A DNA stretch of 64,000 nucleotides, taken from Escherichia coli. GTDB taxonomy: Bacteria > Pseudomonadota > Gammaproteobacteria > Enterobacterales > Enterobacteriaceae. The notes under the pieces were generated by a model. It did no database searches. It had not been told where the DNA came from and saw nothing but the letters and a program-made list of their open reading frames with translations. This document shows, one piece after another, positions 29,862 through 42,829 of this stretch. Position numbers and translations under genes: made by a program. Where the stretch lies: assembly GCF_044324785.1 (NCBI RefSeq), contig NZ_CP172127.1; one strand, written 5' to 3'. Within the stretch, counting starts at the first letter, position 1; each line of letters starts with the position of its first letter.

Positions 29862-30126
29862 GCTGGTCGATCACTGGAAGAGGAAGACGCGGAGTTTACG
29901 CTGCTTGTCAGAAAATAAACAGACAGCGAAATCAAAAGCGCCACGAATAATCAAAATGCCATTTCACTGTTGCTGATTGGCTGCTGACGCTGCTGAAATG
30001 AAATTGCTGATAACGGATTTTCCCATCAGCAATTAGGAAAAATGACAAAAAATTGTGCAGCACATCAAACTTTTGCTCATAACTTTACGGCTTTCCTTGC
30101 GTGCTGAAACAGAAGTATTATGCTTT

Positions 30127-34187: not shown

Positions 34188-34326
34188 TTGTTCCTGTTCT
34201 GTGCATCCCGTCACAAATTCCCCGTTTTTATAATTCAGGCATTTAATCGCGTTTTGTGAGCCTGCTCAAATCTGCCCATTTTGCCTCTCTGGCGGTAATT
34301 TACTTTACGTAAAACATGCATACTAT

Positions 34327-34360
34327 GAGCACATGTTTAAATATGAACACATGTTTAAAC
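34327..34360. promoter_or_regulatory. Tandem direct repeats (candidate operator) upstream of psuK
   Basis: gagcacatgtttaaat and gaacacatgtttaaac, 18-bp period, each with palindromic cores (acatgt, tttaaa). Confidence 0.3.
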
Positions 34361-34426: not shown

Positions 34427-35368
34427 ATGCGCGAAAAGGATTATGTCGTAATTATAGGTTCGGCGAATATTGATGTCGCCGGATATTCACATGAATCATT
34501 AAATTATGCGGATTCAAATCCAGGTAAAATAAAATTTACGCCTGGTGGAGTCGGGCGCAATATTGCACAAAACCTGGCGTTGCTGGGGAACAAAGCCTGG
34601 CTACTGAGCGCCGTAGGCAGTGATTTTTATGGTCAATCGCTGCTAACGCAAACCAATCAATCTGGCGTTTATGTCGATAAATGCCTGATAGTGCCGGGAG
34701 AAAATACGTCAAGCTATTTATCATTACTCGATAATACCGGTGAAATGCTGGTTGCTATAAATGACATGAATATTAGCAACGCTATTACAGCTGAATATCT
34801 CGCACAGCACCGTGAATTTATTCAGAGGGCAAAGGTCATTGTCGCAGACTGTAATATCAGTGAAGAGGCACTGGCATGGATTCTGGATAATGCCGCCAAC
34901 GTACCTGTATTTGTCGATCCTGTTTCCGCGTGGAAATGTGTCAAAGTGCGCGACCGTCTAAATCAAATCCACACTCTCAAGCCAAACCGCCTTGAAGCGG
35001 AAACCCTGAGTGGGATTGCGCTGTCAGGGCGTGAAGATGTGGCAAAAGTTGCTGCCTGGTTCCATCAACATGGCCTGAACCGACTGGTATTGAGCATGGG
35101 CGGCGACGGCGTTTATTACAGCGATATCAGCGGTGAAAGTGGCTGGTCTGCGCCGATCAAAACCAATGTTATTAATGTTACCGGAGCGGGCGATGCCATG
35201 ATGGCGGGGCTTGCTTCGTGTTGGGTAGACGGAATGCCGTTTGCCGAATCTGTTCGTTTCGCACAGGGATGTTCGTCAATGGCGCTCTCCTGTGAATACA
35301 CCAATAACCCCGATTTATCGATTGCCAACGTTATATCGTTAGTGGAGAACGCAGAATGTCTGAATTAA
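34427..35368 (+). CDS. psuK: Pseudouridine kinase (PfkB family)
   Basis: 313 aa; PfkB motifs (GGVGRN; C-terminal GAGD). Confidence 0.9.
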   Translation: MREKDYVVIIGSANIDVAGYSHESLNYADSNPGKIKFTPGGVGRNIAQNLALLGNKAWLLSAVGSDFYGQSLLTQTNQSGVYVDKCLIVPGENTSSYLSLLDNTGEMLVAINDMNISNAITAEYLAQHREFIQRAKVIVADCNISEEALAWILDNAANVPVFVDPVSAWKCVKVRDRLNQIHTLKPNRLEAETLSGIALSGREDVAKVAAWFHQHGLNRLVLSMGGDGVYYSDISGESGWSAPIKTNVINVTGAGDAMMAGLASCWVDGMPFAESVRFAQGCSSMALSCEYTNNPDLSIANVISLVENAECLN

Positions 35369-36294
35369 AAATTTCCCCTGAATTATTACAAATTTCCCCA
35401 GAAGTGCAGGACGCTTTAAAAAACAAAAAACCGATCGTGGCGCTGGAATCGACCATTATTTCTCACGGGATGCCGTTCCCACAAAATGCCCAGACCGCAA
35501 TTGAAGTTGAAGAAACTATTCGTAAACAGGGCGCGGTACCTGCCACTATCGCCATTATTGGCGGCGTGATGAAAGTGGGTTTAAGCAAAGAAGAAATTGA
35601 ATTGCTGGGTCGTGAAGGGCATAACGTGACCAAAGTTAGTCGTCGCGATTTACCTTTTGTTGTTGCCGCAGGGAAAAATGGCGCAACCACCGTTGCTTCA
35701 ACGATGATTATTGCGGCGCTTGCCGGAATTAGAGTATTTGCCACCGGGGGAATTGGTGGTGTGCATCGCGGGGCGGAACATACCTTCGATATTTCTGCCG
35801 ATTTGCAAGAGCTGGCAAATACTAATGTCACCGTTGTTTGTGCCGGGGCGAAATCTATTCTCGATTTAGGATTAACCACTGAGTATTTAGAAACTTTCGG
35901 TGTACCGCTAATTGGCTATCAGACCAAAGCGCTGCCTGCGTTTTTCTGCCGTACCAGCCCGTTTGACGTCAGCATTCGTCTCGACAGCGCCAGTGAAATT
36001 GCCCGTGCAATGGCGGTGAAATGGCAAAGCGGGCTGAACGGTGGCCTCGTGGTAGCGAACCCGATCCCGGAACAGTTTGCGATGCCGGAGGAATCTATCA
36101 ATGCAGCCATAGATCAAGCCGTCGCCGAAGCCGAAGAGCAGGGCGTTATTGGTAAAGAAAGCACACCGTTCCTGCTGGCTCGTGTTGCTGAACTGACTGG
36201 CGGTGACAGCCTGAAATCCAACATCCAGCTGGTGTTCAACAACGCCATTCTGGCGAGCGAAATTGCCAAAGAATATCAGCGTCTCGCGGGTTAA
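35356..36294 (+). CDS. psuG: Pseudouridine-5'-phosphate glycosidase
   Basis: 312 aa; 13-nt overlap with psuK. Confidence 0.9.
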   Translation: MSELKISPELLQISPEVQDALKNKKPIVALESTIISHGMPFPQNAQTAIEVEETIRKQGAVPATIAIIGGVMKVGLSKEEIELLGREGHNVTKVSRRDLPFVVAAGKNGATTVASTMIIAALAGIRVFATGGIGGVHRGAEHTFDISADLQELANTNVTVVCAGAKSILDLGLTTEYLETFGVPLIGYQTKALPAFFCRTSPFDVSIRLDSASEIARAMAVKWQSGLNGGLVVANPIPEQFAMPEESINAAIDQAVAEAEEQGVIGKESTPFLLARVAELTGGDSLKSNIQLVFNNAILASEIAKEYQRLAG

Positions 36295-36321
36295 TTTCTG
36301 ACGGGCAGAAAGCCGTCGCCC
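36294..36321 (+). repeat. Conserved 28-nt leader element, copy 1 (upstream of psuT)
   Basis: atttctgacgggcagaaagccgtcgccc; near-identical copy at 39522..39549. Confidence 0.6.
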
Positions 36322-36387
36322 GTACTCATCAAGCATACCAAAACCTGGCGCTGACGCCGGGTTTACTGGCATGAAGGGAAAATCATT

Positions 36388-37638
36388 ATGGATATAATGA
36401 GAAGTGTTGTGGGGATGGTGGTGTTACTGGCAATAGCATTTCTGTTGTCAGTGAATAAAAAGAGCATCAGTTTGCGCACGGTTGGAGCCGCACTGCTGCT
36501 GCAAATTGCCATTGGTGGCATCATGCTCTATTTTCCGCCGGGAAAATGGGCAGTAGAACAGGCGGCATTAGGCGTTCATAAAGTGATGTCTTACAGTGAT
36601 GCCGGTAGCGCCTTCATTTTTGGTTCGCTGGTCGGGCCGAAAATGGATGTCCTCTTTGACGGTGCGGGTTTTATCTTTGCCTTTCGCGTACTCCCGGCGA
36701 TTATCTTCGTCACTGCGCTCATCAGCCTGCTGTACTACATTGGCGTGATGGGGCTGCTAATCCGCATTCTTGGCAGTATTTTTCAGAAAGCCCTCAACAT
36801 CAGCAAAATCGAATCTTTTGTTGCGGTTACTACTATTTTCCTCGGGCAAAATGAGATCCCGGCGATCGTAAAACCGTTTATCGATCGCATGAATCGCAAC
36901 GAGCTATTTACGGCAATTTGTAGCGGGATGGCGTCCATTGCCGGTTCGATGATGATTGGTTATGCCGGAATGGGCGTACCAATTGACTACCTGTTAGCGG
37001 CATCGCTGATGGCGATCCCTGGTGGTATTTTGTTTGCACGTATTCTTAGCCCAGCCACCGAGCCTTCGCAGGTGACATTTGAAAATCTGTCGTTCAGCGA
37101 AACGCCGCCAAAAAGCTTTATCGAAGCAGCGGCGAGCGGTGCGATGACCGGGTTGAAAATCGCCGCTGGTGTGGCGACGGTGGTAATGGCGTTTGTCGCA
37201 ATTATTGCGCTGATCAACGGTATTATCGGCGGAATTGGCGGCTGGTTTGGTTTTGCCAATGCCTCTCTGGAAAGTATTTTTGGCTATGTGCTGGCACCGC
37301 TGGCGTGGATCATGGGTGTGGACTGGAGTGATGCCAACCTGGCGGGTAGCCTGATTGGGCAGAAACTGGCGATTAACGAATTCGTCGCTTACCTGAGTTT
37401 CTCCCCATACCTGCAAACGGGCGGCACGCTGGAAGTGAAAACCATTGCGATTATCTCCTTTGCGCTTTGTGGTTTTGCTAACTTTGGTTCTATCGGTGTT
37501 GTCGTTGGCGCATTTTCGGCTATTTCGCCAAAACGCGCACCGGAAATCGCCCAGCTTGGTTTACGGGCGCTGGCAGCTGCCACGCTTTCCAACCTGATGA
37601 GCGCGACTATTGCCGGGTTCTTTATTGGTTTAGCTTGA
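36388..37638 (+). CDS. psuT: NupC-family (CNT) nucleoside transporter
   Basis: 416-aa polytopic membrane protein; highly similar along its length to the ORF at 39575..40825. Confidence 0.9.
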   Translation: MDIMRSVVGMVVLLAIAFLLSVNKKSISLRTVGAALLLQIAIGGIMLYFPPGKWAVEQAALGVHKVMSYSDAGSAFIFGSLVGPKMDVLFDGAGFIFAFRVLPAIIFVTALISLLYYIGVMGLLIRILGSIFQKALNISKIESFVAVTTIFLGQNEIPAIVKPFIDRMNRNELFTAICSGMASIAGSMMIGYAGMGVPIDYLLAASLMAIPGGILFARILSPATEPSQVTFENLSFSETPPKSFIEAAASGAMTGLKIAAGVATVVMAFVAIIALINGIIGGIGGWFGFANASLESIFGYVLAPLAWIMGVDWSDANLAGSLIGQKLAINEFVAYLSFSPYLQTGGTLEVKTIAIISFALCGFANFGSIGVVVGAFSAISPKRAPEIAQLGLRALAAATLSNLMSATIAGFFIGLA

Positions 37639-39574: not shown

Positions 39575-40825
39575 ATGGATGTCATGAGAAGTGTTCTGGG
39601 AATGGTGGTATTGCTGGCAATTGCGTTTTTGCTGTCAGTAAACAAGAAGAAGATCAGCCTGCGTACCGTTGGCGCGGCGTTAGTGTTACAGGTCGTGATT
39701 GGCGGCATTATGCTTTGGTTACCGCCAGGGCGTTGGGTCGCAGAAAAAGTCGCTTTTGGCGTGCATAAAGTGATGGCGTACAGCGACGCGGGTAGCGCAT
39801 TTATCTTTGGTTCTCTGGTCGGACCGAAAATGGACACCTTATTTGATGGCGCAGGATTTATCTTTGGCTTCAGGGTATTACCGGCAATTATCTTCGTTAC
39901 AGCACTGGTGAGTATTCTCTACTACATCGGTGTGATGGGGATCTTAATTCGAATTCTCGGCGGTATATTCCAGAAAGCATTGAATATCAGCAAGATCGAG
40001 TCATTCGTCGCGGTTACTACCATTTTCCTCGGGCAAAACGAAATTCCGGCAATCGTCAAACCCTTTATCGATCGTCTGAATCGCAATGAATTATTTACAG
40101 CGATTTGTAGTGGCATGGCCTCGATTGCTGGTTCGACAATGATTGGTTATGCCGCTCTGGGCGTGCCTGTGGAATATCTGCTGGCGGCATCGTTAATGGC
40201 GATCCCCGGCGGGATCTTGTTTGCCCGCCTGTTAAGCCCGGCTACCGAATCTTCGCAGGTTTCCTTTAATAACCTCTCTTTCACCGAAACACCGCCAAAA
40301 AGCATTATTGAAGCCGCCGCTACAGGGGCAATGACCGGGCTGAAAATCGCAGCAGGTGTGGCGACAGTGGTGATGGCATTTGTTGCCATCATTGCGTTGA
40401 TTAACGGAATTATCGGCGGCGTTGGCGGCTGGTTTGGTTTTGAACATGCCTCGCTGGAGTCAATTTTAGGTTATCTGTTGGCTCCACTGGCGTGGGTGAT
40501 GGGGGTTGACTGGAGTGATGCGAATCTTGCCGGGAGTTTGATTGGACAGAAACTGGCGATTAATGAATTTGTCGCTTACCTCAATTTCTCACCTTATCTG
40601 CAAACAGCTGGCACTCTGGATGCTAAAACCGTGGCGATTATTTCTTTCGCGTTGTGCGGTTTCGCTAACTTTGGTTCTATCGGGGTGGTGGTTGGCGCAT
40701 TTTCTGCGGTTGCGCCACACCGTGCACCGGAAATCGCCCAGCTTGGTTTACGCGCGCTGGCGGCGGCGACACTTTCTAACCTGATGAGTGCCACCATTGC
40801 AGGATTCTTTATTGGCTTAGCGTAG
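39575..40825 (+). CDS. nupX: NupC-family (CNT) nucleoside transporter
   Basis: 416 aa, paralog of psuT with long identical blocks. Confidence 0.9.
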   Translation: MDVMRSVLGMVVLLAIAFLLSVNKKKISLRTVGAALVLQVVIGGIMLWLPPGRWVAEKVAFGVHKVMAYSDAGSAFIFGSLVGPKMDTLFDGAGFIFGFRVLPAIIFVTALVSILYYIGVMGILIRILGGIFQKALNISKIESFVAVTTIFLGQNEIPAIVKPFIDRLNRNELFTAICSGMASIAGSTMIGYAALGVPVEYLLAASLMAIPGGILFARLLSPATESSQVSFNNLSFTETPPKSIIEAAATGAMTGLKIAAGVATVVMAFVAIIALINGIIGGVGGWFGFEHASLESILGYLLAPLAWVMGVDWSDANLAGSLIGQKLAINEFVAYLNFSPYLQTAGTLDAKTVAIISFALCGFANFGSIGVVVGAFSAVAPHRAPEIAQLGLRALAAATLSNLMSATIAGFFIGLA

Positions 40826-40839
40826 TGCGCGAGTTATGA

Positions 40840-40873
40840 GCCGGATAAGACGCGGTCAAGCGTCGAATCCGGC
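40840..40873. repeat. REP-like element downstream of nupX
   Basis: gccggataagacgcg…cgtcgaatccggc palindrome. Confidence 0.6.
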
Positions 40874-40880
40874 AACATTG

Positions 40881-41969
40881 TTACACCATCGGCACTAATG
40901 AAAGCGCGTTTTCGGCAGACAGGGTAGGGTTGTTTAAGCTGCCGCTGGCGCGTGAAATTGCCGCGCAGGCCATCGCAAAACGGGCGCTGTCACGGAAATT
41001 GTTTCCCTCCAGAAAGCTATATACCAGGCCCGCCATAAAACCATCGTCAGCACCAAAACTGTCTACTGTCGTATGCGCTGGCGCTGTCAGCAAAAATTGT
41101 TCTCCATCCTTTTCGCTGCAATAAACTGACTCATCGGGCAAATAAACAAACAGTTGCTGAACACCTTGCTGATGCAACGTATTCACTGCGGCATTACGGT
41201 CAGCATCGCTGGTGATCGCCTGTCCCCATAAAATTTCCAGCTCCGGTAAAGTGGGTTTCAGGGTGTGAATATGCGCCAGCCAGTGTTTGATTTTGCCCGC
41301 TTTGAATTCTGAAACGGTATCGACAAACACCGGGATTTCATCAGCGAGGGTAAAGACCCACTCCAGCGCCTCGGCTGTCAGGTTGCAATCAGCAAGTACC
41401 ACGCCCGCATGACGAAGTAAATCGCGCGACCCGTTCAGTAGTTGCGGTGTCAACTGATCCAGCAGATGGGTATCGTTAATCGCCAGCACGGTTTGATCGT
41501 CTCGATTGGCAATTGCCAGATACGTCGATGTGCTTTGACCATGTAAACGAACGCAGCCGGAGACATTCACGCCGGCGCGGCGCGTTTCTTCCAGGAGCAT
41601 TTCGCCATAAAAGTCATCGCCAATCACTGAAAGCAAATGGACGTCGCGGCCTAACAGCGCCAAATTGTGGGCGATATTGCGCCCCACGCCGCCCGCCGAG
41701 CAATGAATTGTACCGGGATGAGAAGCCGCTTGCGGGTAACGGATATCCGCCATCCCGCGAATATCCATATTGATTGTCCCCACCACTACGCAGTATTCCT
41801 GCTCGGTGAGAATGTAACCTTTGCCTTTAATTCGACCTTTGCGCATTAAATCCATAATATGCGCCGCAACGCGCGAACGGCTGATTTGCAGCATATCAGC
41901 AATTTCGTTCTGCTGAATCAGCGGGTTACGCCGTAAAATTGCAAGGATCTCCTTCTCCCGGTTGTTCAT
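40881..41969 (-). CDS. yeiI: HTH-domain fused to PfkB-family carbohydrate/nucleoside kinase (YeiI)
   Basis: 362 aa; N-terminal ~55-aa HTH, remainder clearly homologous to PsuK (shared GGVGRNIA-NLALLG block). Confidence 0.85.
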   Translation of the reverse strand: MNNREKEILAILRRNPLIQQNEIADMLQISRSRVAAHIMDLMRKGRIKGKGYILTEQEYCVVVGTINMDIRGMADIRYPQAASHPGTIHCSAGGVGRNIAHNLALLGRDVHLLSVIGDDFYGEMLLEETRRAGVNVSGCVRLHGQSTSTYLAIANRDDQTVLAINDTHLLDQLTPQLLNGSRDLLRHAGVVLADCNLTAEALEWVFTLADEIPVFVDTVSEFKAGKIKHWLAHIHTLKPTLPELEILWGQAITSDADRNAAVNTLHQQGVQQLFVYLPDESVYCSEKDGEQFLLTAPAHTTVDSFGADDGFMAGLVYSFLEGNNFRDSARFAMACAAISRASGSLNNPTLSAENALSLVPMV

Positions 41970-41971
41970 CT

Positions 41972-42829
41972 TCAGGCTACCGCTTTTTCAGTTTGTTGCG
42001 CTTTCAGCCAGGCGATCTCTTCTGCCCAGATATCCGGGTTGATGGTTTCAAGGATCAGCGGAATGCCGTCGAAACGGTCGTCCTGCATGATCCAGCGGAA
42101 CGCATCATGACCGATATTGCCTTCACCGAGGCTATGATGGCGGTCAACGCGGCTGCCAAAGGTGCTTTTCGCATCGTTAAGGTGCATCCCGCGCAGATAC
42201 TTAAAGCCGACAATACGGGCAAAATCAGCGAACGTTTTCTCGCATTCGGCTGGAGTACGCAAATCATACCCGGCAGCAAAAGCATGGCAGGTATCAATGC
42301 AGACGCCGACGCGGGATTTATCTTCCACGCCGTCGATAATCGCCGCGAGATGTTCGAATTTAAACCCTAAGTTACTGCCCTGACCGGCGGTGTTTTCAAT
42401 CACCGCTGTTACACCTTGAGTTTTATCCAGCGCAATGTTGATGGATTCAGCAATACGCGCAAGGCAATCCTCTTCTGAAATCTGCATCAGATGGCTGCCA
42501 GGGTGGAAGTTGAGCAAAGAAAGCCCCAGCTGTTCGCAACGCTGCATTTCATCTATAAACGCATCGCGCGATTTTTCCAGAGCTTCAGCGACCGGATGTC
42601 CGAGGTTAATCAGATAACTGTCGTGGGGAAGAATTTGCGCCGATGTGTAGTGATATTTTTCACAGGCGGCTTTGAATTCATCGATGGTTTGCGTCGTGAG
42701 CGGTGCGGCACGCCACTGACGTTGGTTTTTGGTGAACAAGGCAAACGCGGTTGCGTCGATTTCGGCGGCGCGAATTGCGGCATTTGCCAGACCGCCAGCA
42801 GCACTAACGTGCGCTCCAATGTATTTCAT
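41972..42829 (-). CDS. nfo: Endonuclease IV (AP endonuclease)
   Basis: 285 aa TIM-barrel AP endonuclease; 2-nt gap to yeiI downstream. Confidence 0.95.

Follow-up and report, generated by a model that had tools for sequence, protein, structure and literature searches.

The Escherichia coli gene yeiI codes for a helix-turn-helix (HTH) domain fused to a kinase-like domain and begins directly behind nfo, the gene for endonuclease IV. The locus raises the question of whether YeiI is a kinase, a regulator or both, which genes it would control, and whether its position behind a DNA repair gene is informative. The gene was analysed within a 64,000-nucleotide stretch (the window) of an E. coli-type chromosome (NZ_CP172127.1, GCF_044324785.1), which runs in reverse orientation to K-12.

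YeiI still counts among the E. coli K-12 proteins without an assigned function; a predicted ligand, two predicted 18-bp operators and a predicted target operon can now be offered for it. In papers of 2022 and 2025 it was described as uncharacterised, and machine-learning tools call it a pseudouridine kinase although PsuK holds that function. The protein is also named in a published list of hypothetical transcription factors. A literature search, with curated regulon databases outside its scope, found no study on the target or ligand of YeiI, on regulation of psuK by YeiI or on any HTH-PfkB regulator. The gene itself is known, while its proposed function, the predicted operator and the evolutionary division described below appear, so far as found, to be unreported.

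The reading proposed here, to which a probability of roughly 0.6 was assigned, is that YeiI would be a pseudouridine-responsive repressor of the psuK-psuG-psuT (psuKGT) operon and that its coupling to nfo is incidental. Regulation of psuKGT by YeiI is predicted with considerable confidence, and the loss of phosphoryl transfer, leaving a protein that acts solely as a sensor, is a slightly favored prediction.

Domains and active site of YeiI

The coding sequence, its two domains and the motifs discussed in this section are located as follows.

40881-41969, minus strand: yeiI coding sequence, the HTH-PfkB fusion (open reading frame of 362 amino acids, Pfam and NCBIfam matches, RefSeq annotation)
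41805-41969, minus strand: winged-HTH domain, residues 1-55 (HTH_24 match, AlphaFold fold; recognition helix ISRSRVAAHIMDL)
40926-41798, minus strand: PsuK-like PfkB domain, residues 58-348 (PfkB match)
41241-41252, minus strand: TLPE, residues 240-243, replacing the NXXE Mg/phosphate motif (NRLE in PsuK)
41127-41138, minus strand: PDES, residues 278-281, replacing the GXXG small ATP-binding loop (GGDG in PsuK, GAEG in FruK)
41043-41054, minus strand: GADD, residues 306-309, replacing GAGD; Asp309 is kept and the anion-hole glycine has become Asp308

A first-pass annotation, made from the letters of the window, had described YeiI as a DNA-binding-type HTH fused to a PsuK-like kinase domain and had proposed a profile search of its domains. 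Both domains were recovered above the Pfam cutoffs, HTH_24 (PF13412) on residues 1-48 (E 1.2e-10, 41.2 bits, cutoff 21.9) and PfkB (PF00294) on residues 58-348 (E 5.5e-68, 230 bits, cutoff 25.8), which, together with 40% identity to PsuK, bore out the description. Against the NCBIfam model NF007416, the YeiI equivalog named 'sugar kinase', the protein scored 811 bits over residues 1-362 (cutoff 561), while its score of 258 bits against the PsuK equivalog NF007355 (EC 2.7.1.83) was below the threshold of 540. By these profile scores YeiI is a PfkB-family protein and not a PsuK equivalog.

The closest solved relative is the E. coli pseudouridine kinase itself (PsuK, also PUKI or YeiC; 7vkp.pdb, 7vtd.pdb, 7vva.pdb). 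The AlphaFold model of YeiI, with a predicted local distance difference test score (pLDDT) of 88, superposes on 7vtd with a template modelling (TM) score of 0.96 and a root mean square deviation of 1.7 Å, and the elements of the β-clasp dimer are present. The modelled N-terminus consists of helices at residues 3-14, 20-27 and 31-43 and a wing hairpin at residues 47-54 (pLDDT 77-92 there), joined directly ahead of the first strand of the PfkB domain; no solved structure spans HTH and PfkB together. In the YeiI clade 44 of the 55 HTH columns were at least 90% conserved. Moreover, 17 HTH residues were invariant in 21 homologs drawn from the YeiI class and from the class of HTH-PfkB proteins with intact kinase motifs, and the recognition helix was unchanged between the two classes.

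The residues that touch pseudouridine are given by the PUKI crystal structures (PMC9061257). All are kept, N14, D16, S30, Y97, N112, N143 and K170 of PsuK corresponding to N67, D69, S83, Y150, N165, N196 and K223 of YeiI. The five core contacts (N67, D69, S83, N196, K223) were found in 89/89 family members, and they include the base-recognition triad that is the hallmark of PsuK (Ser/Thr30, Asn143, Lys170; S83, N196 and K223 in YeiI). The catalytic Asp256 of PsuK is retained as D309, and the GG motif of PfkB signature 1 (G93-G94 within AGGVGRNIA) was invariant. Since all of the contact residues are kept, the predicted ligand of YeiI is pseudouridine.

The motifs of phosphoryl transfer are altered. 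Asn187 and Glu190 of the PsuK NXXE motif have been placed at a putative Mg site, and the GXXG loop of PsuK has been described in the same paper (PMC9247573). The NVTGAGD of PsuK reads DSFGADD in YeiI, and Asp308 precedes the catalytic Asp309 throughout the YeiI clade. NXXE, GXXG and GAGD were all changed in 11/11 YeiI-type sequences and were intact in 76 of the 78 HTH-PfkB genes linked to psuG, so that motif state and genomic context were almost perfectly correlated (motifs kept in 76/78 and 0/11, respectively). The first NXXE position was T or S in all 11 and N in 76/78. None of the three motifs is altered in PsuK or FruK of the same window. In a set of about 90 full-length homologs, the altered motifs are fixed in the Enterobacteriaceae YeiI clade (at least 57% identity), and the remoter HTH-PfkB proteins (41-53% identity to YeiI) retain the canonical ones. 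Sites at least 90% conserved within each class but differing between the classes were M107T, M114T, N187T, A191L, N250D and G255D (PsuK numbering).

The ratio of nonsynonymous to synonymous substitution rates (dN/dS) was 0.03-0.23 across both domains of YeiI and 0.03-0.05 in the HTH, indicating purifying selection; because this holds for both domains, the gene is not decaying and the active site has been remodelled. Judged by its residues, YeiI lacks two of the PfkB catalytic motifs, NXXE and GXXG, and is ambiguous on the third, GAGD. With three phosphoryl-transfer motifs altered the label 'kinase' is doubtful, and of the earlier description as a kinase the PsuK-like PfkB fold stands while the activity is in question.

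HTH-PsuK fusions and the predicted operators at psuK

A scan of one genome per species gave 80 loci, to which exact-protein look-ups added further loci. The motif-intact HTH-PfkB gene was the first gene of a psuK-psuG operon, often followed by a nucleoside transporter gene; psuG was directly downstream in 74/78 loci, and in the remaining four the contig ended before the next gene. Such loci were found in Yersinia, Serratia, Hafnia, Photorhabdus, Pasteurella, Shewanella, Aeromonas, Vibrio, Ferrimonas, Neisseriales, many Clostridia and a spirochaete, the 78 psuG-linked loci spanning Gamma- and Betaproteobacteria, Clostridia and the spirochaete. The fusions bear no annotation beyond 'PfkB family carbohydrate kinase' or 'pseudouridine kinase', and no paper characterising them was found.

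The 11 YeiI-type loci comprised the window, the ST131 lineage, another E. coli, E. albertii, two Citrobacter, Leclercia, Enterobacter, a metagenomic relative, Salmonella and Affinibrenneria. In each of them yeiI was convergent with psuT-psuG-psuK, including two without linkage to nfo, and the accompanying PsuK had no HTH. In a neighbour-joining tree of the kinase domain, which is only suggestive because it carries no support values, the HTH-less PsuK adjoined the HTH-PsuK of Yersinia, Serratia and Pasteurella, and YeiI formed a long sister branch. A remnant of HTH coding sequence upstream of E. coli psuK was not found by tblastn with the Hafnia HTH (best E 0.74) or by three-frame translation.

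Proteobacterial HTH-psuK genes are preceded by a pair of AAACA-NN-TGTTT palindromes spaced 18-19 bp apart, which fall between -58 and -12 relative to the start codon and begin right behind a recognisable -10 hexamer. A weight matrix was built from 35 HTH-psuK upstream sites, with no E. coli site among them, and was applied to the window, where the relevant features are as follows.

34299-34304, plus strand: -35 hexamer of the psuK promoter, TTTACT
34321-34326, plus strand: inferred -10 hexamer, TACTAT, read from the sequence, after a 16-nt spacer (TAYTAT/TATCAT in relatives)
34324-34341: predicted operator O1, TATGAGCACATGTTTAAA (12.1 bits, rank 3 in the window)
34342-34359: predicted operator O2, TATGAACACATGTTTAAA (17.7 bits, rank 1 in the window), 18 bp from O1
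34427-35368, plus strand: psuK, without HTH and with intact kinase motifs
35356-36294, plus strand: psuG, in the predicted regulated operon
36388-37638, plus strand: psuT, in the predicted regulated operon (psuK-psuG-psuT, 34427-37638)

The predicted operators lie 68-103 nt upstream of the psuK ATG. In shuffled windows a single site of at least 17.7 bits occurred in 9/300 and a tandem pair in 0/300. The top matrix match of the whole locus was upstream of the HTH-less psuK in 10/10 other YeiI-type loci, and across these loci the half-sites were conserved and the flanks diverged. Among taxa outside the training of the matrix (Clostridia, a spirochaete and one gammaproteobacterial metagenome-assembled genome), the top match of the locus was at most 200 nt upstream of the gene in 35/45 loci. 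Recognition helices with Met39 went with A at the third half-site base in 54/54 half-sites and those with Ser or Thr39 with A, G and T in 47, 28 and 9, a covariation that is supportive only, because it is confounded by phylogeny and by the training of the matrix.

Elsewhere in the neighborhood, the best matrix score was at most 0.1 bit in the nfo-yeiH, yeiH-yeiE, yeiL-rihB, rihB-nupX and nupX-yeiI regions. In the Salmonella and Affinibrenneria loci, in which yeiI has an upstream region of its own, the top matrix matches were all outside that region. A BLAST search for a second operator pair in E. coli genomes found one place per genome, although diverged sites would be missed by this method. 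Because the tandem operators are at 34324-34359 and the other upstream regions score no higher than 0.1 bit, psuKGT is the only predicted target. The first-pass annotation had proposed a metabolite-sensing regulator of the adjacent nucleoside operons, whose target and substrate were not evident from the sequence. The regulator is retained as a prediction for psuKGT and dropped for rihB and nupX, and the missing items can now be named as predictions, psuKGT on the strength of the operators and pseudouridine on that of the conserved contacts.

The psuK promoter itself was located independently of the operators, because it is marked by a published adaptive mutation in its -35 hexamer. A recurrent single nucleotide polymorphism (SNP), psuK/fruA 2257444 A>C, arose in numerous mice as well as in cultures kept in long-term stationary phase and was described as altering psuK expression; the source papers label it promoter-region or intergenic and do not name the -35 change. 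The position was converted to current coordinates by a shift of +1978, the only one consistent with four srlR mutations of the same tables, and corresponds to position 34301 of the window (2259422 of K-12 NC_000913.3), T>G in the window, 126 nt upstream of the psuK ATG. The substitution affects the third base of the hexamer and converts it to TTGACT; the SNP is a -35 up-mutation. Relative to this promoter, O1 and O2 span roughly the edge of the -10 hexamer to +26, which, as the sites are predicted, is a repressor-type position.

Two other candidates were discarded. The strict 14-mer CAAACANNTGTTTG with up to two mismatches gave 3 matches where 3.9 were expected by chance; the half-sites in E. 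coli are GARCA and are missed by it, hence the need for a weight matrix. The second-best matrix match in the window, at 30064-30081 (ATCAAACTTTTGCTCATA, 12.8 bits), about 150 nt upstream of fruB, was treated as chance because it stands alone and its score is not outside the range of the shuffled maxima (mean 12.9).

The Aeromonas HTH-PsuK has a different recognition helix (ALASHISSL), and in place of the AAACA-NN-TGTTT pair ACAAACGTTTGC is present upstream of its gene. A ACAAACGTTTGC-type box was also present upstream of Vibrio HTH-psuK, in addition to the palindrome pair. The box CAAACGTTTG resembles those of the PurR/LacI type, and a second regulator may act at HTH-psuK in Aeromonas and Vibrio.

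Proposed mechanism and competing explanations

YeiI would derive from a pseudouridine kinase. Its dimer, formed through the PfkB β-clasp as in PsuK, would set the two winged-HTH domains on O1 and O2, and since these overlap the start region of the psuK promoter, the bound protein would repress psuK-psuG-psuT. Pseudouridine would enter the conserved nucleoside pocket, which would include Ser83 of the neighboring subunit, and a quaternary movement like that of PsuK would then release the DNA; for PUKI, a pseudouridine-specific, Ser30-dependent quaternary change has been described. The ancestral and still widespread form is suggested to be a single protein, both kinase and autorepressor, encoded by the first gene of the psuK-psuG operon. 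In the Enterobacteriaceae this gene would have been duplicated, PsuK losing the HTH and YeiI rewriting the phosphoryl-transfer site. YeiI probably no longer consumes its putative inducer, a consumption that the loss of phosphoryl transfer would prevent. In Escherichia and close relatives, the 2-nt coupling to nfo would supply yeiI transcription and probably translational coupling. The broader proposition, that HTH-PsuK is a phylum-spanning enzyme-repressor that phosphorylates pseudouridine and autoregulates its operon through tandem AARCA-NN-TGYTT sites, and that in the Enterobacteriaceae its two roles were divided by duplication between PsuK, left as enzyme alone, and YeiI, left as sensor-repressor alone, is evenly balanced between acceptance and doubt.

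Compared with PsuK, which shares its fold, its pseudouridine contacts and the catalytic aspartate and is encoded 5.5 kb away in the same locus, YeiI has the N-terminal winged HTH, reads TLPE, PDES and GADD for NXXE, GXXG and GAGD, and is in no operon with psuG. With the HTH-PsuK fusions (Yersinia, Serratia, Shewanella, Pasteurella, Neisseriales, many Clostridia) it has in common the two-domain architecture, the recognition helix and the predicted operator; these proteins, however, have unaltered canonical kinase motifs and their genes head the operon in cis, whereas YeiI shares 41-53% identity with them, is encoded away from the operon and has an altered phosphoryl-transfer site. The ROK repressors Mlc and NagC combine an HTH with a sugar-kinase-type domain that serves as the sensor and whose catalytic motifs are degenerate relative to those of the kinase paralogs. 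YeiI is proposed to use a kinase fold in the same way, but the ROK/ASKHA fold is unrelated to PfkB/ribokinase and YeiI is not a member. In BirA and NadR, an N-terminal HTH is fused to an enzyme of the regulated pathway and catalysis is kept. The ancestral HTH-PsuK is proposed to have joined enzyme and repressor in a single chain in this manner, although the enzyme folds differ and YeiI appears to have passed catalysis to its paralog.

A bifunctional YeiI, regulating psuKGT and still phosphorylating pseudouridine or a related modified nucleoside through an unusual metal/phosphate site, as presumed for the ancestral HTH-PsuK, is conceivable but rather unlikely. Such an enzyme would accord with the retention of Asp309, Asp217 and Glu243, with substituted active-site residues that are conserved rather than drifting, with purifying selection on the C-terminal half, and with M107T and M114T, which flank the pocket and could retune specificity. 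However, the three phosphate/ATP motifs changed together, only in the lineage with a separate intact PsuK, and the changes put acidic side chains where the ATP phosphates sit. In addition, in the part of PMC12506659 that cites Preumont 2008, a psuK mutant is reported to be unable to use pseudouridine, from which it would follow that YeiI does not substitute for PsuK.

That YeiI controls nfo and DNA repair or, in line with the wider suggestion of the first-pass annotation, the rihB-nupX nucleoside genes draws on the position of yeiI beside nfo and nupX-rihB in the window and is very improbable. The matrix scores in those intergenic regions speak against it, even if a different operator is possible; nupX is deleted in ST131, where yeiI remains; E. 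albertii, Citrobacter, Leclercia and Enterobacter have no rihB, yeiL or nupX between yeiI and psuT; and nfo is not beside yeiI in Salmonella or Affinibrenneria. A conventional sugar or nucleoside kinase, co-expressed with nfo and with a vestigial HTH, would fit the name 'sugar kinase' in NCBIfam and RefSeq and the tight 2-nt coupling. It is the least credible of the explanations considered, with the HTH the most conserved part of the protein, the kinase motifs the part that changed, and matching operators persisting upstream of the HTH-less psuK.

Several points also weigh against the proposed pseudouridine-responsive repressor. Evolution in the mouse gut and in stationary phase repeatedly gave the psuK promoter SNP, and in the published tables consulted no yeiI loss-of-function alleles appear, while the repressors frlR, srlR and dgoR are listed there as often inactivated in the same experiments. 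This absence is unexpected if loss of YeiI alone were to derepress a useful operon fully; the weak psuK -35 hexamer may be the explanation. The replacement residues D303, F305, D308, D279 and S281 are themselves conserved and Asp309, Asp217 and Glu243 are kept, so the site still does something and may retain catalysis or bind a co-ligand. The PROSITE PfkB signature 2 permits [GD]-D, and GADD by itself is therefore no proof of inactivity. M107T and M114T differ from PsuK beside the base pocket, and the ligand might for that reason be a relative of pseudouridine. Finally, since single sites scoring as high as O2 arise in shuffled windows, the case for the operators rests on the pair, its position and its conservation.

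If the proposal is correct, 1) it identifies the regulator of psuKGT, an operon whose psuK promoter is repeatedly hit by adaptive mutation in the mouse gut and during long-term stationary phase, 2) YeiI would be, as far as found, the first described PfkB-fold pseudokinase transcription factor, 3) the split of PsuK and YeiI would be a clean natural example of the subfunctionalisation of a bifunctional enzyme-regulator, and 4) strains with natural disruptions of yeiI should show constitutive psuKGT expression. The predicted pair of operator and sensor could also be used to build a biosensor for pseudouridine, of interest for strains that produce this nucleoside for mRNA manufacturing.

The nfo junction and the yeiI-psu locus

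The genes of the window are, in order, fruBKA, psuK, psuG, psuT, yeiL, rihB, nupX, yeiI, nfo, yeiH, yeiE, lysP and cirA. The junction between nfo and yeiI is formed by the following elements.

41972-42829, minus strand: nfo, endonuclease IV (open reading frame of 285 amino acids; Pfam AP_endonuc_2, NCBIfam deoxyribonuclease IV)
41970-41971, minus strand: 2-nt spacer between the nfo stop and the yeiI start (TGA AG ATG), without a strong Shine-Dalgarno sequence upstream

The spacing of 2 nt on the same strand, as first annotated, is confirmed by the nfo stop codon TGA at 41974-41972 and the yeiI ATG at 41969-41967. RefSeq annotates both genes in 5421/5426 complete E. coli genomes; yeiI-nfo is an already annotated gene pair and not a chance feature. 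A junction of 2-3 nt was kept in Escherichia (including E. albertii), Citrobacter, Leclercia, Enterobacter and one metagenomic relative. This short junction is conserved in five genera. No terminator-like hairpin was predicted at the junction, and with its conserved spacing this makes read-through from nfo and coupling into yeiI by termination-reinitiation likely. Co-transcription of nfo and yeiI is thus plausible from the sequence; the nfo promoter depends on SoxS. Consensus scans for an internal promoter at the junction stayed at chance level, and an alignment of 8 genomes gave nothing convincing there. A genomic SELEX (systematic evolution of ligands by exponential enrichment) peak of RNA polymerase between nfo and yeiI has been published (PMC3946193) and hints at such a promoter.

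In Salmonella and Affinibrenneria, yeiI does not adjoin nfo and is nevertheless beside psuT-psuG-psuK, so the coupling to nfo, although its spacing is real, is probably not the functionally informative link. Between E. coli lineages the identity falls sharply exactly at the nfo/yeiI boundary, which shows that yeiI has been exchanged independently of nfo. The linkage to nfo seems to follow from the position of the yeiI-psu cassette rather than from a functional pairing. In the Salmonella enterica locus (L086, 1-11315), yeiI-psuT-psuG-psuK adjoins a relB/parE toxin-antitoxin pair and a fragment of a DDE transposase instead of nfo, which suggests that the four genes move as a unit.

The gap between the convergent nupX and yeiI (40826-40880) is occupied by an imperfect palindrome resembling repetitive extragenic palindromic (REP) elements (GCCGGATAAGACGCG...CGTCGAATCCGGC), probably the 3' end or stabiliser of both transcripts. 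nupX (39575-40825) is a close paralog of psuT, with about 89% amino acid and 79% nucleotide identity. Its deletion in ST131 has left an annotated remnant of 66 bp (L001, 7833-7898), with yeiI retained, and in E. albertii, Citrobacter, Leclercia and Enterobacter it is the whole nupX-rihB-yeiL insert that is absent.

In E. coli, yeiI and psuK each fall into two deeply diverged classes of alleles, with about 80.5% nucleotide identity and a synonymous divergence (dS) of about 1, while identity is 98-100% in the genes between or beside them (yeiL, rihB, nfo, yeiH). The divergent yeiI allele was counted in 2012+48 of 5422 genomes and that of psuK in 1201/5407, counts by which a strict coupling of the two dimorphisms was rejected. 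Both yeiI classes carry the altered motif set, and the ST131 allele adjoins E. albertii on the kinase-domain tree. Natural disruptions of yeiI comprise an IS1 insertion in strain CH10468 and a shortened copy in strain IH5, one such genome being NZ_CM166342.1, and a protein cluster of truncated, 289-residue YeiI has 236 member sequences.

In Clostridiales bacterium 38-18 (L071, 9391-10889), HTH-psuK-psuG is followed by a gene for a distant PfkB homolog (24% identity) and a YeiL-like gene of the Crp family (39%), a layout that echoes the E. coli neighborhood in an unrelated phylum.

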